From Myxococcota bacterium (GTDB lineage: Bacteria; Myxococcota; UBA4151), in the NCBI GenBank assembly GCA_036338695.1, contig JAYZBQ010000058.1:1-64000 (forward strand): a stretch of 64,000 bases of DNA, in the 5' to 3' direction. Under the pieces are notes generated by a model that searched no databases, was not told where the DNA came from, and was given only the letters and a program-made list of their open reading frames with translations. The translations under genes and the position numbers were made by a program. Positions 8,068 to 57,818 of this stretch are shown here, piece after piece. Positions within the stretch are counted from its first letter, which is position 1, and every line of letters starts with the position of its first letter.

Positions 8068-8133
8068 CTCGCTCGAGTTGACCGGGTCGATGGCGCCCAT
8101 CATAGTGCGGGCGATATTCACCTGAGGTGTACG

Positions 8134-10449
8134 ATGCCAAGTTATGTACGCTCTGTGGCGCTGGCTGTCTTTGTCAGCGCTTGTGCCGGGTCCAGCCCGG
8201 GTGATGAGCCCACACCGCCACCTCAGGACGCCGGGGTAGAACAGCCTGCGAGCCGTTGCCCTGAGTGCGAGTTGTGCAGCGATGAGGCGGCGATCGCCGA
8301 GCAGGTTGCGGCAGGCCTACAAGCCTTTGAGGCGCTCACCGATGGACTCCCGGAGCGACCGATCGAGGCGGCGCGCCCGGAGGCGACCAACGGGACGCTC
8401 AACCTCGGCGTGAACCCGGCGGTGGTCCCGATCGTCAGCTCCCCTGATGGAACGCTCGTCGCCGCCAGCGCGCTCGGCGAAGGCCGCGTCGTCGCCTTCT
8501 CGAGCCAGGACTTTTTGAGCTCGGGTGAGCGCTCGACGTTGCTCGGGCAACCCGCCATAGACCGTCTGGTGGTGAACGCGGCGCGCTGGGTTGCGCCCTT
8601 TCACGCCGGGGACCAGCCGCGTATTTTGGCGGATAACCATGCCGTTGCGCAGGTGCTCTCAGACGGCGGCATCGAGTCGGTTGAGGTCGCAGGGATTCGG
8701 TTCGCACAGGGGCTTGAAGAGATCCGAAACTGGGACGCACGCGCCATCGGTGCGGCGGACGTGCTGGTGGTTCAAGTCAACGAGTGGGGGACCTCGCACA
8801 TCGACGAAGAGGACGTCGCCACCATCCGCAGCTTCGTCGAGGCGGGGGGCGGTTTGCTGATCGCGGGTTCGGCGCTGCACTGGAAGTGGTGGCTGAGCTG
8901 GACCGCAGGGGTCAATCAGGGTGACGCCATTTTGGAGGGCAGCGGGATCTCCTGGCGGCCGCATGACGTCCCGGCGACCGATCATGCCCTCATTGCCTAC
9001 GATGCGCTGGGCTCTCCCGCTGCGCTGTGGTGCAGTTATGTCAACGAGGACCCGCTCGACGCCCCGCACTATGCGCGCCTGCAGCCGCTCTTTGACGCCG
9101 CAGCAGATGACGAGCGTTATGTCGAGCTCGACCTCGCCTTGTGGCGCCTGATCCAAGAGACGCCCCGTCTGAGCGTGGCGAAGTCATCGCCGGCTGGGCG
9201 CCTCTCGGCCGACGTCGGCGCGTTGCTCGGCGGTCAGACCTGGGCGCAGCCGCATCCATGGGCTGCCGTTCATCCCGGCGTGGTCCAAGAGGGAGCGCCA
9301 AGAATCCGGTCCACTTCCACGCTTGAGACGCGCTGGAAACGCTGGCGACCGCTGGGCGTGTATGCGCCGCCAGGTGAGCCGGTGACCGTGCGGGTCCCAG
9401 CCGAGTTCGCCGGAACAGGTCTGCGGATCCGGTTGGGCGAGCTCCATGATGACCTGCGCTCGATCGAGCGCATTGAGACCTGGGAGCGGGCGCCGCTGCT
9501 GACACGATCTTTTCCGCTCGACGCGGCTGAGACCGTCGTAGGCACCGGTCTAGGCGGCTCGTTGTATCTTTGGGTGCCCGAAGACTACGCGGCGCGCCGG
9601 TTGCGCGTCGAGACAGACGGCGGCGTCCGCCAGGCGGTCTTTCGAGCAGGGATGACCAACCAAGCGGACTTCGTCGCCGACCTCGCGGGCGGCGCACCCG
9701 TCGCCATCTTAGAGCAGGAAGGCGCCGTTCGCTTTGCCGTCAAGGCAGCCAAGGCGGCGCAGGTCGACGACCTCGACGGGGTGGTGGCGTTCTGGACGGG
9801 GTTCTACGAGAGCCACCGGACCTTGAGCCAGGAGCCAAACGAGCGCCCCTATGAGAGCGACTGGGCCTTTGATCCACAAGTCGGCTATGGTTACGCCAAC
9901 GCCACAAAGTATCGCATCAACCACCCTGAGCTCGCTACCGACTGGGTGTTGCGGACGCGCACGGGCGACGAGGACTGGTGGCTCTTCGCCCACGAGCTCG
10001 GGCACCAGTTTCAGACGAGCAACTGGCGCGGCGGCGACATCACGGAGGTCGCGGTCAATCTGTTTAGTCTGTACACGATCAACTCCTACCTTAACGACGG
10101 GGGCGACCGAGAGACCCGTGGCTTCAAGGACAACGCCATCGATCATGAGGCGCTGCGCTCGATGCGCTGGGGCAACGCAGGCCTCTTTGACAAGTTGGAG
10201 CTGTACCGCCAGCTGGTGTTCGAGTTCGGCTGGGATGCGTTCCGTCAGACCTTTGCCAGTTATTACGCGCCAGAGTTCCCTGAGGAGGACTACGGCGTCT
10301 TTATGGACGGCTTCGCCAGCCGCTTTAGCCAGATCGTCGAGCGGGACATCACTCCGTTCCTTGACCACTGGGAGTACCCGCTCAGCGATGAAGGGCGCGC
10401 CCGTGTCCGGCGGATGCGGTTGCCCGCCTGGTTGCCGCCTGGCTGGTGA
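8134..10449 (+). CDS. M60-like (enhancin/TCAF-type) zinc metallopeptidase lipoprotein
   Basis: Lipobox VSAC; LGVYAPPGE M60-like N-domain; HELGHQFQ followed by EVAVN (gluzincin). Confidence 0.85.
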   Translation: MPSYVRSVALAVFVSACAGSSPGDEPTPPPQDAGVEQPASRCPECELCSDEAAIAEQVAAGLQAFEALTDGLPERPIEAARPEATNGTLNLGVNPAVVPIVSSPDGTLVAASALGEGRVVAFSSQDFLSSGERSTLLGQPAIDRLVVNAARWVAPFHAGDQPRILADNHAVAQVLSDGGIESVEVAGIRFAQGLEEIRNWDARAIGAADVLVVQVNEWGTSHIDEEDVATIRSFVEAGGGLLIAGSALHWKWWLSWTAGVNQGDAILEGSGISWRPHDVPATDHALIAYDALGSPAALWCSYVNEDPLDAPHYARLQPLFDAAADDERYVELDLALWRLIQETPRLSVAKSSPAGRLSADVGALLGGQTWAQPHPWAAVHPGVVQEGAPRIRSTSTLETRWKRWRPLGVYAPPGEPVTVRVPAEFAGTGLRIRLGELHDDLRSIERIETWERAPLLTRSFPLDAAETVVGTGLGGSLYLWVPEDYAARRLRVETDGGVRQAVFRAGMTNQADFVADLAGGAPVAILEQEGAVRFAVKAAKAAQVDDLDGVVAFWTGFYESHRTLSQEPNERPYESDWAFDPQVGYGYANATKYRINHPELATDWVLRTRTGDEDWWLFAHELGHQFQTSNWRGGDITEVAVNLFSLYTINSYLNDGGDRETRGFKDNAIDHEALRSMRWGNAGLFDKLELYRQLVFEFGWDAFRQTFASYYAPEFPEEDYGVFMDGFASRFSQIVERDITPFLDHWEYPLSDEGRARVRRMRLPAWLPPGW

Positions 10450-48949: not shown

Positions 48950-49588
48950 TTAGCCGCAGTCGCTGCCAAATCGGCAGAGGCGATCGATGGGCTCGAAGGG
49001 GCCAGCGTCCACTCCTGGATCGACCGGCAGACAACAGCCGAGACCATCGCAAGGGTCCGGGTGGGGGTGCCAACCGATGTCGATCCCGGCGTGATGTCCG
49101 TCATTAACCTGCTCCACGGCGCAGGCTTTGGTGCAGTAGCCACCTTGACCGTCAAGCCGCGCAACACAGTAAAAATTGGGGTCCTCAGCGCTGCACGAGT
49201 CCACCTCACCGGCGTTAAAGTCGGGTACGACACAGGGCGCTCCGAGCCCGGTCGCTGGCCCGCCACCCGCATCCTGCGGTGGCGAACCCGTGTCCGGCCG
49301 AGCGCTCACCTCTCGGCTCATAAAGCCGAGGTCGTCAGCTCCGCTGTCACGGGGGGGCGCGACGCCGGTGTCCCTTGCCGCATCCGGTAGGCTCTGGCCT
49401 GAATCGATAACGACGGCGCCGGCGTCACGCTCGGTAGGACGCTGGCAGGCCCCTTGCTGGCAGACCCAGCCGGCGGCGCAGGTGCCCGGCCCGTCACACG
49501 GCGCGGTACGCTCGCAACTGCTCAGCAGCACAGCGAGCACCCAAAGAGGTGTGATTCGCCTCAGTTGCAGTCCGGCGCGAAGCGACAC
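48950..49588 (-). CDS. Cys-rich lipoprotein (tandem paralog B)
   Basis: LSSC; CDGPGTCAAG; PNFYCVARLDGQGGYCTKAC; start uncertain. Confidence 0.7.
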   Translation of the reverse strand: MSLRAGLQLRRITPLWVLAVLLSSCERTAPCDGPGTCAAGWVCQQGACQRPTERDAGAVVIDSGQSLPDAARDTGVAPPRDSGADDLGFMSREVSARPDTGSPPQDAGGGPATGLGAPCVVPDFNAGEVDSCSAEDPNFYCVARLDGQGGYCTKACAVEQVNDGHHAGIDIGWHPHPDPCDGLGCCLPVDPGVDAGPFEPIDRLCRFGSDCG

Positions 49589-50217
49589 ACGCCCTCGATC
49601 AGGTCACCGGGCAGCTGCCCAGCGTCTTCGTCGTTGGGCACGGCGACGCAGCAGCCGGCGCCGCAGTTGTTGTCAACGTTCCCGGCGTCACCCTCTTCTT
49701 CGTGATCGCTGACTTCGCACGCTTGCGTGCAATAACCACCCTGGCCGCTCAGGTTCGCAATGCAATAGTAGTTCGGGTTATCGATGCTGCATGGATCGGT
49801 CTCACCTTGCTCAAGATTAGGCACCTCGCAGGCGTCACCGAGAGTGAGTACGTTGACGACGGGGACGTCAAAGACCGGCTCGCCCGCATCCGCTGGGTCG
49901 ACACCACCGCCGACGTCCTGGGGGACGGAGGGCGCAGCGTCGAGATCAAACCCCATGTCACGAAAGACGATGTTGGCATCGATCGGGGGGCGAGCGGGAC
50001 CCGAATCCACCACCGGACCTGCATCATAAACGCCCGTGCCGGTGTCCGGTCGAGCGCTGGCGTCTGGAGCAGGGGTCATGACCGCTTCACAGATCCCGCC
50101 GGAGCAAATCGCACCGGCTGGGCAATCTCCTGGACCTTCGCAGGTTTGTTCTTCCGATTTGCAAGCCGAGACAATCAACGGCAAGGCGAGGACGATAGGC
50201 AGGAGGCTGTGTTTCAT
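49561..50217 (-). CDS. Cys-rich lipoprotein (tandem paralog A)
   Basis: VSAC; CEGPGDCPAG; PNYYCIANLSGQGGYCTQAC. Confidence 0.75.
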   Translation of the reverse strand: MKHSLLPIVLALPLIVSACKSEEQTCEGPGDCPAGAICSGGICEAVMTPAPDASARPDTGTGVYDAGPVVDSGPARPPIDANIVFRDMGFDLDAAPSVPQDVGGGVDPADAGEPVFDVPVVNVLTLGDACEVPNLEQGETDPCSIDNPNYYCIANLSGQGGYCTQACEVSDHEEEGDAGNVDNNCGAGCCVAVPNDEDAGQLPGDLIEGVCRFAPDCN

Positions 50218-50295
50218 CGGACAGGTTCCCTTCACGTGGGTGCCGAGGGCGACTGAACCGACTCATCGACCTGCACCTTACGGAGGCACATACCG

Positions 50296-50970: not shown

Positions 50971-52138
50971 GTACCTGCCCTTTAGCGAAGTCGAGCAGAT
51001 AGAGCGCACCGTCGGCACCCTGGGCGAACGAGGCGATCAAACGCCCAAACTCGCCGATCAACCTCAGCTCGCTCACCGCTCCGGCTTGAGCGGGCAGGGC
51101 AGCTGACCAGACCCTTCCCGTGACAAAGTCACCGAACACATAGCGACCCTTGTGGGCGGCGAGAGCAGCGCCACGGTGGACATAGCCGCCCGTGATCGAG
51201 CGCCCAAGGTCGTGCCCGTACTGCACGAAAGCCGGCGCGTAGTCGCTTAGGTTGCAGTCGCCTGATTTTGAGAAGCAGTTGTTCCCCTCGGTTCGATCCC
51301 AGCCCAAGTTGTCGCCCGAGCTGACCAGTGAGACCTCCTCCCACTTGTCCTGACCGACGTCCGCCACGATGAGTCGTCCGTCCGGAGCGAACGAGAACTT
51401 CCAGGGGTTGCGCACGCCGTAGACGAAGACCTCAGGGCGCGCGCCGGCTTCACCGACGAAGGGGTTGTCGGTCGGTATGGCGTACGGTTTCTGCGGGCTC
51501 GAACCAGCGACGTCGATGCGCGCAATCGTGCCCAGCAACGTCCCCTTGTTCTGCCCGTGTTTACCCGGGTCATCGCGCCACCCACCATCGCCAAAACCAA
51601 CATACAGGTAGCCATCCAAGCCAAAGCTCAACTGTCCAGCGTTGTGGTTGGGGTAGGGCTGAACGACGTCAAACAGTACGATCTCGCTGCGCTTATCGAG
51701 CTGACCCGACGCATACTCAAAGCTGGCGATCCGAGTCAGCTGCTCCGCTCCACGCTGTATGTTGCGATTGATAAACACGCGCCGGTCGCGCGGGTAATCG
51801 GGGTGGAAGGCGAGCCCCAGCAAACCCATCTCGGAGTCGCTAATGACCTCGAACTGATGAACGAGCTTCACCGATCGTGTTTTTAGATCGAAGCGCTTAA
51901 GGGCGCCGCCCTTCTCGAGCAGCAAACCACGTTGCGGCGCGCCCGGCTCGAACTGCATGTCCGTTGGCTGCGCCAAACCGTCGAGCACCAAGCGAAGCTC
52001 AACGCCCGAGACCGCTGCCGCCGCAGCCTCATCGACAGCGGGCGCTTCGTACGAAGGGCTGAACCAGCTAACGAGGGTTCCTCGGCAGCCGCTGCAACCG
52101 ACGATGCTCAACAACGCAAGGGCGGCTGTGAGCCTCAT
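50948..52138 (-). CDS. PQQ-dependent sugar dehydrogenase (GSDH family)
   Basis: EMGLLGLAFHP, NHNAG, GFGDGG, YGVRNPW, DVGQ, SITGG. Confidence 0.88.
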   Translation of the reverse strand: MRLTAALALLSIVGCSGCRGTLVSWFSPSYEAPAVDEAAAAAVSGVELRLVLDGLAQPTDMQFEPGAPQRGLLLEKGGALKRFDLKTRSVKLVHQFEVISDSEMGLLGLAFHPDYPRDRRVFINRNIQRGAEQLTRIASFEYASGQLDKRSEIVLFDVVQPYPNHNAGQLSFGLDGYLYVGFGDGGWRDDPGKHGQNKGTLLGTIARIDVAGSSPQKPYAIPTDNPFVGEAGARPEVFVYGVRNPWKFSFAPDGRLIVADVGQDKWEEVSLVSSGDNLGWDRTEGNNCFSKSGDCNLSDYAPAFVQYGHDLGRSITGGYVHRGAALAAHKGRYVFGDFVTGRVWSAALPAQAGAVSELRLIGEFGRLIASFAQGADGALYLLDFAKGQVLRFDDAA

Positions 52139-53550
52139 TTGTTGAGCACGATGTAGAGCGTCCGCTGCCGCCTCTGAATGAGCAAGAGGGTTCGTTTGCC
52201 GCTGCGCTTGTAGCGCTGCTTGAACGCTGCCAGGCTTCGGACGGACTTCTGGTTTACCTCAACCAACACATCACCAGCCTGCACGCCAGCCCGGTCAGCG
52301 GGGGAGCCCGGCTCGACCGCAGTGACGACCACGCCTGCCTTAATCCGCCGCGGGATCGCATACTGCTCGCGTAGACGACCGTCGATGTTCTCAAGGACCA
52401 GCCCAGCCAGATGCCCACTCTTCGCCTCAGCGGGCGGTTCCTTTTGGGCGCGCCCGCCGTCGCCCTCGAGCTCACCGAGCTTCACGCTCATCGTACGCGC
52501 ACGTCCTTTGCGCAGGAGCTTCAACTTGACCCGAGCCCCCGAACCCGCTGCAGCGACTCGGTTCCGCAGATGAGCCGGGTCTCTCAAGGTCTCGCCGGCG
52601 AGCTCCACGATCACGTCGCCACGCTTGATCCCGCTGCGCGCCGCTGGGCTGTCTTGCATCACATCCGAGATCAGCACGCCCTTGGTCGACTTCAGCCCCA
52701 TCGCTCGCTGAAGATCTTTCGTGACGGGCTGTATCGCGACACCAAGCCAGCCTCGAACAACCCGTCCGTGCTTGAGGAGGCTGTTCATGACGGCACGCGC
52801 CATGTTGGAGGGGACTGCAAACCCGATCCCCTGATAGCCGCCGCTGCGTGAGGCGATGGCCGTGTTGATGCCGATGAGCCTGCCTTGCAGATCAATCAGC
52901 GCACCGCCGCTGTTGCCCGGATTAATCGCCGCATCGGTCTGGATAAAGTCTTCATAGTCGACGATCCCCACGTTGGCGCGCCCCTTAGCCGAAACGATCC
53001 CCATCGTGACGGTATGTCCCAGGCCAAAAGGGTTGCCGATGGCGACCACCATCTCGCCCAGCCGCAGCCTGTCCGAGTCACCCAGCGCGATCGGCGCGAG
53101 GTCTTTAGGCGGCTTCAACATCTTGATAACGGCAATGTCCGACTTTGGGTCGGCGCCCACCACCTCAGCGTCAAAGTCCCGCCCATCGCTAAGCGTCACG
53201 CGGATCTTCGACGCGCCTTCGATCACGTGGTTGTTCGTCAGGATCACGCCGCTCTTGCGCACGATCACCCCACTTCCGAGGCTGTTCTCACGCTCTGGCA
53301 TCGACCGCCGCTGCTGCGGCGCACCCGGGCCAAAGAAGCGCTTGAAGAAGGGGTCATTGAGCAGCGGGTGACCACCCGGCCGGGCGCTCATCGCCTTGGT
53401 CGTCGAGATGTTGACCACCGCACGCACCCGACGCTCCGCCACGTTGGCGATGGCGTCGCTCGCAAAACCCGTTGGGTCCCACTTGGCGGCTTGAGCGACC
53501 GGCGTAGACAGTGAGAGGGCGGCGAGCGCCCAGAGCATTCGTGGGATCAT
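52135..53550 (-). CDS. degP: DegP/DegQ (HtrA) serine protease with two PDZ domains
   Basis: LTNNHV, DIAV, QTDAAINPGNSGG, RGWLGV, two SPA..G...GD PDZ motifs. Confidence 0.92.
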   Translation of the reverse strand: MIPRMLWALAALSLSTPVAQAAKWDPTGFASDAIANVAERRVRAVVNISTTKAMSARPGGHPLLNDPFFKRFFGPGAPQQRRSMPERENSLGSGVIVRKSGVILTNNHVIEGASKIRVTLSDGRDFDAEVVGADPKSDIAVIKMLKPPKDLAPIALGDSDRLRLGEMVVAIGNPFGLGHTVTMGIVSAKGRANVGIVDYEDFIQTDAAINPGNSGGALIDLQGRLIGINTAIASRSGGYQGIGFAVPSNMARAVMNSLLKHGRVVRGWLGVAIQPVTKDLQRAMGLKSTKGVLISDVMQDSPAARSGIKRGDVIVELAGETLRDPAHLRNRVAAAGSGARVKLKLLRKGRARTMSVKLGELEGDGGRAQKEPPAEAKSGHLAGLVLENIDGRLREQYAIPRRIKAGVVVTAVEPGSPADRAGVQAGDVLVEVNQKSVRSLAAFKQRYKRSGKRTLLLIQRRQRTLYIVLNK

Positions 53551-53621: not shown

Positions 53622-54626
53622 TCAATCCAAGCAGTGGCCGTAGTCAAAGACGCTGACCCCTTGAGACGCTGCGGTGCACGCGCTGGTGTAGGTCTTTTGA
53701 TCACAGCCACACACGGGGGTGGGGTACAGGTCCACCGGACACAGCGGGGCGCCCGAAGCGTCCTGCTCGACGTTCGGCGCACAGTATCCGCTGCCGCCGC
53801 AGACTGCCAGCTCCGGCTGACGACACCACTGACCTTCGCCGCACGGGTTGTCGGCGTCGCACGCCACTTTGCCAAGGCTGAGCGCCTTGAGGGTCGCCTT
53901 GAATGAGCGGTACTGGTTCAAGTCCGATAAGACGATGCGTTCTCCAGCCGAGACGTAGATCGCCAGCTTACCGTCGGCTCGATAGACGTAAAACTCGTCC
54001 TTAGATGCGCCGTCGTGTGCGTTCAGCCAGACATGGTCCGCCTGCGTGTCCTGGAAGACTGGGTAGTTCACCTGGACCTGGCTTGTCCGCTCGTTGCCGT
54101 CGCAACTGTCCGTCGCGTGAAGCGCGCACGCCCCGTAAGAGTTGCGCAACTCGGACATCACCTTCTGCTCCGATGAGTGGCAGAAGCCCTGCTCGCAGGT
54201 CTCGCCGTCGCCGCAGTCCGAAGCAGCGGCGCAGGTCGTGCCGACCTCACCCGAGTTCTTGAGCACCGTCGCAAAGGCGACGTCGAACCCCTCACTCGCC
54301 AGCTGATCTTTGAGCACCTGCAGATAGCCCATCTGCTGGGCGCAAAAGGCGCAGTTGATCTTGTACATGCTCACGACCGTGACCTTACCTTCGAAAGCTT
54401 CGAGCCCGAAGGTCTCCATAAACCGCTCACTGTTCTGGTTCACGTCCTGGAGCTGCCAAGTCGGAAGATCCGCGCAGACACACTGCGAGGCGGCGCCTCC
54501 CTCACAGGCGGGGGGGGCATCACACGACACCTCGGTCTGCTCCCAGCCACCGACCCGCTGCTTGGGTTGAATGTTCCGATAGTCCGAACAGCCGGCGATC
54601 AGCACCGCAAGCGCCAGGTAACGCAT
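53622..54626 (-). CDS. Lipoprotein with selenoprotein-P-like thioredoxin domain (CAFC) and Kazal-like tail
   Basis: IAGC lipobox; GKVTVVS...NCAFC; YPVFQD...VW...G.SKDEFYVY..DGKL; PVCGCDQKTYTSAC. Confidence 0.7.
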   Translation of the reverse strand: MRYLALAVLIAGCSDYRNIQPKQRVGGWEQTEVSCDAPPACEGGAASQCVCADLPTWQLQDVNQNSERFMETFGLEAFEGKVTVVSMYKINCAFCAQQMGYLQVLKDQLASEGFDVAFATVLKNSGEVGTTCAAASDCGDGETCEQGFCHSSEQKVMSELRNSYGACALHATDSCDGNERTSQVQVNYPVFQDTQADHVWLNAHDGASKDEFYVYRADGKLAIYVSAGERIVLSDLNQYRSFKATLKALSLGKVACDADNPCGEGQWCRQPELAVCGGSGYCAPNVEQDASGAPLCPVDLYPTPVCGCDQKTYTSACTAASQGVSVFDYGHCLD

Positions 54627-54958
54627 TATCGCCGCCGTCTTCTCAAGCCGATGACAGGCACCAGCCACAGCCAGCTCGCTGCGCCGCCGACCGAGCAGCC
54701 GCCCTCGGGCTCAGGCGGCGTGACGCCAGCGTCCGCTCGAGGGCGCCGCCGCCGCTGCCCGGTGTCCACCGGCCCAGCGTCATACATCCCTGCGTCCCAG
54801 TCTGGCAGAACAACACAGCAAAGCCCGTCAGCGCAACCGGTGTCTGGATACGCGCCAGCGTCCATCGCTGAGCCAGTATCGGCCTCGGGCACGTTAGCGC
54901 CTACATCTGCGTAAGCCGACGTCGCCACCAACACCATCAACACTCCTAAGATGCGCAT
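54626..54958 (-). CDS. Small MYXO-CTERM-type sorted protein
   Basis: Signal peptide; DAG repeats; C-terminus GGCSVGGAASWLWLVPVIGLRRRRR. Confidence 0.72.
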   Translation of the reverse strand: MRILGVLMVLVATSAYADVGANVPEADTGSAMDAGAYPDTGCADGLCCVVLPDWDAGMYDAGPVDTGQRRRRPRADAGVTPPEPEGGCSVGGAASWLWLVPVIGLRRRRR

Positions 54959-54973
54959 GGAGGTCCCCCTAAA

Positions 54974-56050
54974 CTAGTCGTCCAACAGCTCGTCGATGGC
55001 TGCTGTGTAGCCCGTCTGAGCGCGTGGGTCGTCCTCGCACCGCGAGGCGAAGTTGAAGCTCATGTCGTCGCCGTCGAGCACGTAGTAGTTGGGTAGCCCG
55101 TTGTCACAGGTGGTGATCCACTCACGACGCCAGACCTCGTTGAAGCCCGCTCGTCCGTTGCCGTTATCGAGCAGCATACGCGCCGGGTCGATGCTTTTGG
55201 CCTGCGCATCGGCGAAGCATTCCTGCACCGTAGCCGGCGTGCGGGTGTTCCCCTGACCGATGACGTAATACGCTTCGACCGGTTGCCCTTGGTCTTTGTA
55301 CTGCTGGATCAGTTGCTCAGTCTGCGGGAGGCGCTGGCGACAGGCTGAGCACCAGCCCGCCGTCAACACCATCACCTGTGCTTTGACGCGACCGCAGTTG
55401 TCGTGAATCGCTACCGTGTCACCGTAGCAGTTCGGCAGCACGAGGTCGCGCAGCTTATCGCCGCGCTGGTTGCCCTCACCTTCGCTCTCGCACTCGCCCA
55501 AAATGTTGGTTTCGATCGGCGCATCCCAGCGCACGTTGCTGCCACAGAAGCTCGTGCCACGCCGCTTGGGCTCCGAGCCGTCCTCTTCCATCTCCTCAAA
55601 CATCACGTTGTTGAGGCGCGCCTTGAAGGTGCCGCCCACCACGCCGGTCGAGACGATCTCGAGCACGCCGGTCGCTTGGTAGATCTCGTTGCAGACGCCG
55701 TCGTCGTCGCAATCACGGTAGGCGCGCACCAGCGGGTCGGCTTCGTTGCCGTCGTCGGCTTCGAGCATGTAGGAGCCAGCGGGTAGGGGCTCCGTCTCAT
55801 CCGGCAGCAAGAAGGACGTGAACTCGATCTTATCAAAGCGGGAGCCCGCCCCCGAAGCCTCGTAGCCCAAGTACTCCTTACCCGTCTTGCGACCGAACAC
55901 AGCGGTCCCCGAATCGACGGCAAAGTCCGCTTGGTCACAGGTCCCTTCGTGGATGATATCGTCCCAAGAGGGCTCTTGAGGCCCGTCATCGGCGGGACCG
56001 CAAGCGGTCGCCAGTGCGAGGCATGAAATGGCAAGTGCGATACGCGTCAT
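54974..56050 (-). CDS. Lipoprotein with C-terminal TlpA/thioredoxin-like domain
   Basis: ATAC lipobox; G..RGD...D..L.NC.G; TAGWCSAC; GLP.YYVLD. Confidence 0.75.
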   Translation of the reverse strand: MTRIALAISCLALATACGPADDGPQEPSWDDIIHEGTCDQADFAVDSGTAVFGRKTGKEYLGYEASGAGSRFDKIEFTSFLLPDETEPLPAGSYMLEADDGNEADPLVRAYRDCDDDGVCNEIYQATGVLEIVSTGVVGGTFKARLNNVMFEEMEEDGSEPKRRGTSFCGSNVRWDAPIETNILGECESEGEGNQRGDKLRDLVLPNCYGDTVAIHDNCGRVKAQVMVLTAGWCSACRQRLPQTEQLIQQYKDQGQPVEAYYVIGQGNTRTPATVQECFADAQAKSIDPARMLLDNGNGRAGFNEVWRREWITTCDNGLPNYYVLDGDDMSFNFASRCEDDPRAQTGYTAAIDELLDD

Positions 56051-56192
56051 GAGACGTCTCCTGTCTAAGCCTTTGGGTCATGCACCAGAACGCTATCCCG
56101 AACAAGTGCAGCAGCGCATGAACGCTAAGAAGTTATCACGATTTGATCTCGCGCGCACGGCGGCGCACACTGTGGTCGCTGGAGAACCCCAC

Positions 56193-57818
56193 GTGACGAG
56201 CACCGCACGGCGATGGATCGCAGGCCCTTGGCGCGACAGCGTCTTGCTGGTCGGCTTGCCGCTGCTGATCCTGCCAGCGTGTGCGCTCATCCTAGGAGCA
56301 GGGCTTAGCGATGAGCGCCAACTGAATGCGTGGATCTTTGCGCTCGGCGCGCAAGGTCATCACCTGCCTGGCTGGCTGCGCGCCTATGGCGACAAAGCCG
56401 TGTTTTCGGCGTATCGCCAACGACTCATCTGGGGGCCGGCGGTGATCGTGAGTCTGAGCGTGGGCTTTGCGCTCGCCGATCTCCACGCGTTGGTACTGAC
56501 TGCCTATCTGTGGGGTGTTTGGCATGGGCTGATGCAGACCTACGGTGTGGCGCGAATCTATGGCCGGATGAACGGCGCAAGCGCACAGCTTGCTCGGTGG
56601 GACCTGCTCGTCTGCCAGGTCGGATTCATCGCAGCGGTTTTGGCTTCGCCCGTGCGACAACACTACATCCTCGACCTGGCGTTGCGCATCGGTTTGACCA
56701 TCCCAGACGCTGCAGCGCTTGAGGCCTTGCGCACCGTCGCCGTCCTCGCCACCGTGGCAGCGGTTTTCGGGTGGGTGGTGGTCAACCTGCGCGCCGGCTG
56801 GCGCCAAGCGCACCCAGCCCGGCTCGTGCTGATCCCGTCGAGCCTGGCGTTTTGGTGGTTTTGTAACCTAACGGTCGAGCATATGCTCATCGGCCTTGCG
56901 CTGTTCGAGGTGTTTCATGACCTTCAATATCTCGCCCTCGTGTGGTGGGTGGGCAGGGCGCGGCACCAGCAGGGGGCTGGGGGACGCTCGGCCCGGTGGC
57001 TCTATGGTCGAGGGGCGCTCTCGATCGGTCTCTACGCGGTCGCCTGTCTCTTGTACGGCGCGCTGGTGCCGCTCGGCGAGGCTGGCTCGACCTTTCAGCG
57101 CATCGGCGTAGGGGTTCTCGCCGCGTCGCAGCTTGTTCATTTCTATTTCGATGGGTTCATCTGGCGCCTGGGTGAGACGACACACAGCGGCTGGCTGCGG
57201 CAGGATGGCTCGAAGTCACAACAGCGCCACCACGCTCGCCCAGCGCTTGCCCTCGCTGCCCTGTCGCTGATCCTTGGCGCAGGTGTGCTCGAGCGGATGC
57301 AGCGCTCTCGCCCGGAGGATCGCATCGTGCGCTTAGCCGGTGTGATACCAGGAAGCCCCATCCTGCAGACCCAGCTCGGCGCGCTCCATCTCCAGCGCGA
57401 CGCGCTCCTCGATGCCGCAGGCGCCTACCGCGCAGCGCTGGCGCTGATCCCCGAGTACGACCTGGCGAGCGACGGACTTGAGCACGTTCTTCGGCGCGCA
57501 GCCGAGACCGGCGGGCTGCATCAACTCGTTGCCCCTGACTGCGAGCCGTTTGCGAGCACGCAGCACGCAGCCCTGGCGTTCAAAACGGGGCGCGTGGCGA
57601 TCGAGAGCGGTCGCCCCGAGCTGGCTCGACGGGCTTGGCACACGGCGCTGTGTATGGATCCACGCCACACCGCGGCGAGCCACAGCCTGGGCGTCTACTA
57701 CGCCCAGCGCGGCGACTACTCGGCGGCTGCAGCGATCCTGCGGCGTGCGCTCGAGCGTCAACCGAACGAGGCGCAGCTACGAGCTTTGCTCGAGCGAGTT
57801 ACTGACCGCCCCGAGTGA
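56193..57818 (+). CDS. His-motif polytopic membrane protein fused to TPR repeats
   Basis: HHLPG..RAY, WHGLMQTYG, FHDLQY, HFYFDGFIW; TPR-like tail; GGAG before GTG 56193. Confidence 0.7.
   Translation: MTSTARRWIAGPWRDSVLLVGLPLLILPACALILGAGLSDERQLNAWIFALGAQGHHLPGWLRAYGDKAVFSAYRQRLIWGPAVIVSLSVGFALADLHALVLTAYLWGVWHGLMQTYGVARIYGRMNGASAQLARWDLLVCQVGFIAAVLASPVRQHYILDLALRIGLTIPDAAALEALRTVAVLATVAAVFGWVVVNLRAGWRQAHPARLVLIPSSLAFWWFCNLTVEHMLIGLALFEVFHDLQYLALVWWVGRARHQQGAGGRSARWLYGRGALSIGLYAVACLLYGALVPLGEAGSTFQRIGVGVLAASQLVHFYFDGFIWRLGETTHSGWLRQDGSKSQQRHHARPALALAALSLILGAGVLERMQRSRPEDRIVRLAGVIPGSPILQTQLGALHLQRDALLDAAGAYRAALALIPEYDLASDGLEHVLRRAAETGGLHQLVAPDCEPFASTQHAALAFKTGRVAIESGRPELARRAWHTALCMDPRHTAASHSLGVYYAQRGDYSAAAAILRRALERQPNEAQLRALLERVTDRPE

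Follow-up and report, generated by a model that had tools for sequence, protein, structure and literature searches.

A SelP-like CxxC lipoprotein of Myxococcota and its probable kinship with the N-terminal domain of animal selenoprotein P

The gene, its protein and its neighbourhood

The window analysed here is a whole stretch of 64,000 nucleotides (contig JAYZBQ010000058.1, positions 1 to 64,000, assembly GCA_036338695.1) from a Myxococcota genome of marine origin. On its minus strand, at 53622..54626 (ATG at 54626, TGA at 53624-53622), lies the gene of a 334-aa CxxC lipoprotein (P0001) that resembles selenoprotein P (SelP). The gene is intact in six near homologues (67-99% identity), 24/27 of the listed differences within the ORF of a strain variant fall on third codon positions, and a hidden Markov model (HMM) of 12 SelP domains, run against all six frames of the 3.36-Mb genome, found this ORF as its sole match (E 6.8e-13). 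Judged by its sequence, this is a real gene with a match beyond chance, and its product is a predicted membrane-anchored, exported thioredoxin-fold lipoprotein.

The protein contains 23 Cys residues in all and begins with a lipoprotein signal peptide predicted from sequence (54588..54626, minus strand, as are all parts given here), with lipobox L-I-A-G/C13, the GC/S of which is invariant in 7/7 close homologues. An N-terminal Cys module follows (C35, C41, C49 and C51; 54474..54524), from which the spacing C51-x3-P-x-W, that of several SelP domains, leads into a thioredoxin-fold domain of the TlpA/peroxiredoxin type (residues 52-252, 53871..54473) recognised by structure comparison of the predicted model. 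This AlphaFold model, built from a 118-row alignment, has a mean pLDDT of 78, with most 10-residue core blocks at 85-97. The active site C92-A-F-C95 (54342..54353), both Cys codons of which are TGC, stands at the start of helix 93-111, and the loop K209-D210-E211-F212 (53991..54002) places D210, as in SelP, in the column of the TlpA cis-proline. Between them the fold is interrupted by two inserts that occur only within the protein's own subclade: a four-Cys module with a weak DUF7107 match (C132, C138, C144 and C149; 54174..54251), which is a gap in about 112/118 aligned rows of the SelP-like family, and a loop with C167 and C175 (54081..54146, boundaries from the alignment). Behind the fold come a Cys-rich module modelled at low confidence (C256-C282, 53781..53861) and a Kazal-like domain (C296-C332, 53631..53741). 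A sequence-only reading of this DNA had quoted conserved blocks of the protein in a set order, Cys instead of Sec at the active site, small disulfide modules inserted within the fold and a Kazal-like domain behind it, and all of these were found as it described them. A mammal-type SelP locus (L077) carries blocks matching those which that reading gave for human SELENOP, in the same order.

Upstream on the same strand, the stop of a gene for a 110-aa protein with a weak MYXO-CTERM-like tail (54626..54958; 15.6 bits, cut-off 20) overlaps the ATG of the SelP-like gene, and next to it a predicted lipoprotein with a TlpA/ResA-like CSAC domain (54974..56050) is a candidate electron donor that appears, by eye, to retain its cis-proline. 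A homologue of this TlpA-like gene stands upstream in 4/4 family loci checked, and the source genome has one DsbD_TM (DsbD/CcdA) gene. A degP/htrA protease gene lies downstream on the same strand (52135..53550), and adjoins in 2/4 family loci checked (G000, the source genome, and G044, both of the same genus). No partner gene or operon context is conserved across the whole SelP-like family, and neither a promoter nor a relevant terminator was found at the locus. Contigs from a salt-marsh RNA run extend over the region, one of them (53973-56110) covering both the SelP-like and the TlpA-like gene, at most a weak hint, as contigs are not proof of transcription; a second RNA run covered only 227 nt of the region. 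Elsewhere in the window, a tandem pair of Cys-rich predicted lipoproteins that resemble each other in their N- and C-terminal modules (48950-50235) matches no Pfam family over cut-off, and a divergent gene for a membrane protein with a C-terminal TPR (56028-57818) overlaps the upstream TlpA-like gene at its start. Among the genomes of one family (6/6 loci, L002-L007), the SelP-like gene is convergent with the genes of a cytochrome c/rhodanese lipoprotein and of a small lipoprotein with a weak DUF4382 match, a possible sulfur or selenium link.

The Kazal-like tail and the adjoining degP could be taken to mean that the main job of the protein is protease control, with the tail as an inhibitor of DegP or some other protease of the envelope and the redox domain in an accessory role. 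The Kazal_2 model reaches 21.7 bits on the whole protein (cut-off 22.8) and 25.1 bits, above cut-off, on the C-terminal piece alone, and a PDB sequence search finds Kazal inhibitors at E 0.002. However, the tail also occurs in orthologues and a paralogue without an adjoining degP (L008, L009 and L041), the residue at the putative P1 position of the reactive loop differs between homologues (V, M, F or T), and most of the family has no tail, so that we regard this explanation as very unlikely. The paralogue L041 (G000:C72, about 8100-9200; likewise L040 and L043) repeats the layout of the 334-aa protein, with a Cys N-terminus, a CGTC redox domain with an insert and a Cys-rich and Kazal-like tail; at 30% identity to the 334-aa protein it has lost both the Lys-Asp-Asp loop signature and the SelP_N match.

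A bacterial family and its kinship with SelP

When 401 genomes of the phylum were scanned with Pfam, 11 had SelP_N matches, mainly in lipoproteins free of inserts. Searched against 1.84 billion cluster representatives, a profile of 11 such domains matched 101 at E<=1e-30 and 356 at E<=1e-10. The family is described here from the best 150 of these 356 matches, and 118 proteins were aligned, most fragments, long fusions and multi-domain TlpAs being left out. At E<=1e-5, 99 of the 118 match SelP_N (best E-value 1.2e-16), 63 AhpC-TSA and 62 Redoxin, and the SelP_N match in the family spans only model positions of about 5-125 of 234. A pattern scan of GTDB genomes located 20 family loci, titled Myxococcota, Myxococcales, Polyangiaceae, Bradymonadia, Deltaproteobacteria, Bdellovibrionales or unclassified, with Plesiocystis pacifica and Enhygromyxa salina as cultured carriers. 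Genomes beyond the phylum were covered by two exact patterns and by 14 control genomes, none of which had a match above cut-off. All 6/6 genomes of the source genome's taxonomic family have an orthologue of the 334-aa protein, which is by sequence a derived Cys member of this Myxococcota lipoprotein family. One family member (P0039) belongs to a partly marine 394-member cluster, has a C-terminal tail unlike the myxococcotal ones and may come from another phylum. Nine database fragments (P0136, P0138, P0139, P0142-P0144, P0148, P0150 and P0151) start just past the CxxC position, probably because gene callers truncated Sec genes at the UGA, and protein databases would therefore under-count the Sec forms.

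For the animal side, a DNA-pattern scan of metagenome contigs yielded 18 SelP-type loci, 13 of them with the whole domain, from which one duplicate and the five partial loci were dropped to leave a set of 12 domains. All 12/12 match SelP_N (81-382 bits) and three also match SelP_C; from these matches and their Sec-rich tails the loci appear to be of animal origin. Three SelP-type sequences (L065, L071 and L080) have CxxS or SxxS in place of UxxC and have kept long Sec-rich tails.

The sequence-only reading had proposed that the lipoprotein resembles the N-terminal domain of SelP with CxxC for UxxC, and had named a profile comparison of SelP_N with generic redoxins as a check. In Pfam the whole 334-aa protein reaches 28.8 bits for SelP_N (E 9.7e-7), above the cut-off of 23.2, while Redoxin and AhpC-TSA score 23.2 bits each, both below their own cut-offs; no AhpC or TlpA model does clearly better. 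The SelP_N match is interrupted by the inserts. Over residues 49-125 by themselves, all three models (SelP_N, Redoxin and AhpC-TSA) are level at 26.6-26.7 bits, a thin margin, and the C-terminal half of the thioredoxin fold alone has no Pfam match; because the three models tie on the N-terminal half, the single Pfam score of this protein is weak. The profile built from the 12 SelP domains gives the family a median of 69.4 bits (n=130, range 32-99) and the 334-aa protein 51.9 bits, against medians of 22.5 for the NCBIfam family NF053656 (n=24), 2.9 for TlpA (n=21) and -1.1 for peroxiredoxins (n=21), and in the reverse direction the SelPs reach 58-90 bits with the family HMM. Since the SelPs had been fetched by a common motif, we cut the motif and all downstream sequence as a control (117 family, 24 NF053656 and 18 TlpA rows left), and the ranking was unchanged (family 47.8, 334-aa protein 41.9, NF053656 22.9 and TlpA 4.4 bits). 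Similarly, hhalign aligns SelP with the family at a probability of 99.94% (score 215, 133 columns) and with TlpA at 67% (score 34), and the top bacterial match of each SelP is a family member with 32-42% identity over 96-153 aa.

The loop column points the same way. In a joint alignment the TlpA cis-proline column holds Pro in 21/21 TlpAs, Arg in 21/21 peroxiredoxins and in 24/24 NF053656 members, and Asp in 116/130 family members and in 12/12 SelPs, where Asp at this column is there by selection because the SelP set was fetched through the common motif; the 334-aa protein has D210 in this column, and a test for the Lys-Asp-Asp loop found K209-D210-E211. Besides this selected column, the motif-cut control and Pfam serve as the independent checks on kinship. 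The reciprocal HMM scores, hhalign and the common loop signature thus bear out the proposed resemblance, and a specific kinship of the 334-aa protein with SelP is highly probable, the family being the closest bacterial match found here to the animal SelP N-terminal domain.

Several other searches brought up no SelP. Animal SelP was not returned by protein searches, in which a 37-row alignment against longer proteins gave none at E<=0.01 and a search of 96 candidates for SelP gave three matches, all from the SelP-like family. The ESM Atlas returned only AhpC/TSA-type or unnamed clusters and, with redoxin families set aside, an unrelated viral cluster (0.91, 142 features in common) and no SelP cluster, results taken here as uninformative. 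PDB sequence and fold searches had no SelP chain among the matches listed, which is not evidence against kinship.

One could read the protein as an ordinary TlpA/ResA in which the SelP-like blocks arose by chance or convergence, given the three-way Pfam tie on residues 49-125 and the fact that its best solved structures are of the TlpA/ResA/DsbE type: by VIA-align the predicted model superposes on 3gl3 with Z 15.3 (rmsd 2.2, 141 aligned), on 2f9s with Z 13.8 (rmsd 2.4, 137 aligned) and on 1jfu with Z 11.7 (rmsd 3.4, 149 aligned), and its Foldseek matches are ResA/Sco/DsbE. However, these structure lists hold no SelP structure and are therefore unable to rank SelP, the TlpA HMM reaches only 19.3 bits on the protein against the 51.9 of the SelP HMM, the cis-proline is missing, and the TlpA clade of our trees leaves the protein out. 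The HMM scores, hhalign and the loop column refute such a reading unless the alignments are wrong, and we rate it as extremely improbable.

Phylogeny had also been put forward as a check, with nesting among ordinary TlpAs as the result that would tell against SelP kinship. In a first tree (73 rows, 153 columns) SelP (99/100) falls within a clade of the family and its paralogues (88/97, not starred), NF053656 forms a separate clade (100/95) and TlpA is the outgroup. In a second tree, from which eight long or odd rows had been removed, TlpA again stands apart (100/99) and the inner order, including the branch joining SelP and the family, is not settled; a quick version of it put the subclade of the 334-aa protein at the base and nested NF053656 inside the family. 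AU tests rejected neither SelP outside both bacterial groups (p 0.156) nor SelP as the sister of the family (p 0.383). The trees thus place the protein outside TlpA, while fixing neither the nesting of SelP nor the direction of transfer, and the kinship is argued here from profiles and the loop signature, not from trees.

A further rival reading makes the protein a simple member of NF053656 (TUGYCR seleno-redoxin), with its SelP likeness indirect. NF053656 is its best NCBIfam match (42.3 bits), hhalign aligns the two families at 99.87% (score 186), a SECIS-like hairpin described below has a position common to both, and the quick tree placed one within the other. Set against this, 42.3 bits is far below the required 100, the highest-scoring of the 118 aligned proteins reaches E 9.3e-27 (about 94 bits, an estimate), the NF053656 loop is Tyr-Arg-Asp, and its members have a clade of their own. 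Furthermore, 0/24 true NF053656 members match SelP_N at E<=0.01, and the alignment of SelP with the family scores higher than that of the family with NF053656, which itself aligns with SelP at a score of 85. Membership is thus largely refuted and highly improbable; the contrast of Arg in NF053656 with Asp in the family at the cis-proline column therefore makes NF053656 a sister group.

Selenocysteine in relatives and the origin of SelP

A search of homologues for TGA at the first Cys, likewise suggested by the sequence-only reading, was successful: 10/20 GTDB loci, and in addition locus L012, have TGA at this codon. A SECIS-like hairpin core lies at +16 nt from the TGA in 11/11 TGA genes and in 0/17 distinct Cys genes. 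Its stem is 84% paired, with 13 cells showing two-sided changes and 0/500 shuffles as high, against 29-47% in slid controls, figures to be read with the fact that the structure was derived from the very sequences tested for covariation. selA was present in 5/5 TGA-bearing genomes tested (of 10). In the source genome's taxonomic family selA was not found in 6/6 genomes (59-94% complete) nor selB in the two genomes tested, and there was no tRNA-Sec among the 44 tRNAs called in the source genome. In NF053656, TGA occurs in 25/26 places above cut-off. An ancestral Sec with reversion to Cys in the lineage of the 334-aa protein would be the simplest reading of these data.

Two candidate links were tried. 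The present gene has no hairpin core, and a relic SECIS in it was rejected: the gene folds a -15.7 kcal hairpin, but its loop is shifted by 4 nt and the G044 orthologue is without it. Descent of the vertebrate SRE1 stem from the bacterial hairpin finds no support, since it has the same position and different pairing. Separately, we note that SelP mRNAs (L072, L076 and L077) have kept Gln-Ala codons at the bacterial hairpin site, L072 with the same nine bases. In the NF053656 members L014-L037 Arg occupies the cis-proline site, the position of the catalytic Arg in peroxiredoxins, and their 7-bp hairpin is as far from the UGA as that of the SelP-like family. Many peroxiredoxin-like genes of these genomes (L085, L100, L113, L116, L119-L121, L123, L129 and L139) have TGA at the peroxidatic Cys.

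As many relatives of the 334-aa protein are predicted selenoproteins, the animal SelP domain likely stems from this family. A bacteria-to-animal direction is favoured by inference only, because diversity is greater among the bacterial proteins, which also have a sister family within their phylum, and because reports of SelP come from animals alone (PMC2397514, PMC7539508). At even odds, SelP began as a myxococcotal UxxC lipoprotein whose gene reached an early animal with Sec already at the active site; the animal would then have replaced the in-frame bacterial SECIS with 3'-UTR elements and later gained the Sec-rich tail, the family being made up of previously uncatalogued bacterial selenoproteins and the present gene being a Cys reversion. 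The idea that this locus may bear on the origin of SelP is supported as to specific kinship, but the protein is not the best stand-in for the SelP ancestor: it is divergent and laden with inserts, and its SelP_N score of 29 bits compares with up to 61 in other family members. The 334-aa protein being a derived member, it is the family, more than this gene, that matters. With Sec at the same site and 32-42% identity, the bacterial family is a candidate donor that makes SelP origin testable by phylogeny, and its small soluble Cys forms (e.g. of Plesiocystis pacifica and Enhygromyxa salina) could serve as models of SelP N-domain structure and enzymology.

In databases PF04592 is already annotated on some family proteins, so that the match is visible there. 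In the literature covered (including PMC2397514, PMC3473315, PMC7539508, PMC5727441, PMC5909903, PMC10298544, PMC9312934, PMC13188914 and PMC13326102, and few subscription journals) we found no description of the family or of a sequence-level bacterial SelP homologue. No SelP-like family is among the 119 prokaryotic selenoprotein families in Table 1 of a 2026 catalogue (PMC13188914), and one supplement of PMC13326102 gave no match.

Proposed function and comparison with known systems

In an exported lipoprotein, a helix that begins with CxxC suggests thiol-disulfide chemistry in the cell envelope, and the CxxC of the 334-aa protein is very probably redox-active. We suggest, with a probability of roughly 0.55, that the protein is an exported SelP-like lipoprotein, likely a cell-envelope thiol peroxidase that is re-reduced by the upstream TlpA-like protein, and that its lineage lost an ancestral Sec. 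In such a scheme C92 would attack a hydroperoxide or an oxidised thiol, C95 would resolve the product into a C92-C95 disulfide, and re-reduction would come from the upstream TlpA-like lipoprotein, itself supplied with electrons by the single DsbD/CcdA protein, much as thioredoxin reductase would serve the SelP N-domain. The family ancestor would have had Sec at the first Cys site; this lineage, having lost the Sec machinery, would have changed to Cys, and would then have gained the small disulfide modules and the Kazal-like tail. Taken singly, peroxidase as the main activity falls a little short of even odds; it is favoured because the SelP domain is credited with a presumed peroxidase activity, working with thioredoxin reductase (PMC5727441), and because the cis-proline is lost as in peroxiredoxins. 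Against it, the protein has neither the peroxiredoxin PxxxTxxC nor the peroxiredoxin Arg, and with Cys it would be slower as a peroxidase than with Sec. The role of the TlpA-like gene product as electron donor is more tentative still; a relay protein is plausible because the cis-Pro of a CcmG is required for its reduction by CcdA (PMC5909903).

A close rival to peroxidase keeps the SelP kinship and assigns the protein a disulfide isomerase or reductase activity for folding or repairing the bacterium's many Cys-rich exported proteins, with the inserts and Kazal-like tail binding clients. The third position of the CxxC is Tyr in 69 and Phe in 50 of the family (n=130), and a CxxC with an aromatic residue, as in the CGYC of DsbC, is given as an isomerase hallmark in PMC5909903; the fold is nearest to DsbE/ResA/TlpA, Cys-rich predicted lipoproteins lie nearby, and the quality-control protease degP is downstream in the genus. 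However, the family has replaced the cis-proline that characterises protein-disulfide enzymes, a DsbC-like dimerisation domain is absent, and the degP link is seen in one genus only, and we consider such an isomerase less likely than a peroxidase.

Taken together, the sequence comparisons indicate that the 334-aa protein is not a SelP (it has no Sec and no tail), not a TlpA and not an NF053656 member, but belongs, as a derived Cys form, to the bacterial family nearest to SelP. It shares fold, membrane anchor and CxxC with TlpA, ResA and CcmG-DsbE (3gl3, 2f9s and 1jfu; 11-18% identity), to which SelP itself has been tied at the fold level by 3D-Jury (PMC2397514), but it is without their cis-proline, has no Pro in the CxxC dipeptide and has Gln rather than Glu at +6. 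Similar to peroxiredoxins (BCP/AhpC), it has an extended thioredoxin fold that lacks the cis-proline, whereas PxxxTxxC is absent, Asp stands at the place of the catalytic Arg and the peroxiredoxin HMM gives 1.6 bits. With NF053656 redoxin_TUGYCR its family has in common the strand pattern at the N-terminus, the occurrence of UxxC in lipoproteins from one phylum and the distance between hairpin and UGA; however, the family loop is Lys-Asp-Asp/Glu rather than Tyr-Arg-Asp, and a UGA within T/S-U-G/S-Y-C is absent from the 334-aa protein. Compared with SelP, it is a bacterial lipoprotein with Cys, has neither His-rich region nor Sec-rich tail, lacks the Cys after the loop that is present in 12/12 SelPs, and adds a family-specific N-terminal extension, two inserts and a Kazal-like tail, whereas it is like the SelP N-terminal domain (PF04592) in its exported thioredoxin fold, in [U/C]xxC followed by Gln at +6, in the Lys-Asp-Asp loop that replaces the cis-proline and, through its bacterial relatives, in Sec at the same site.
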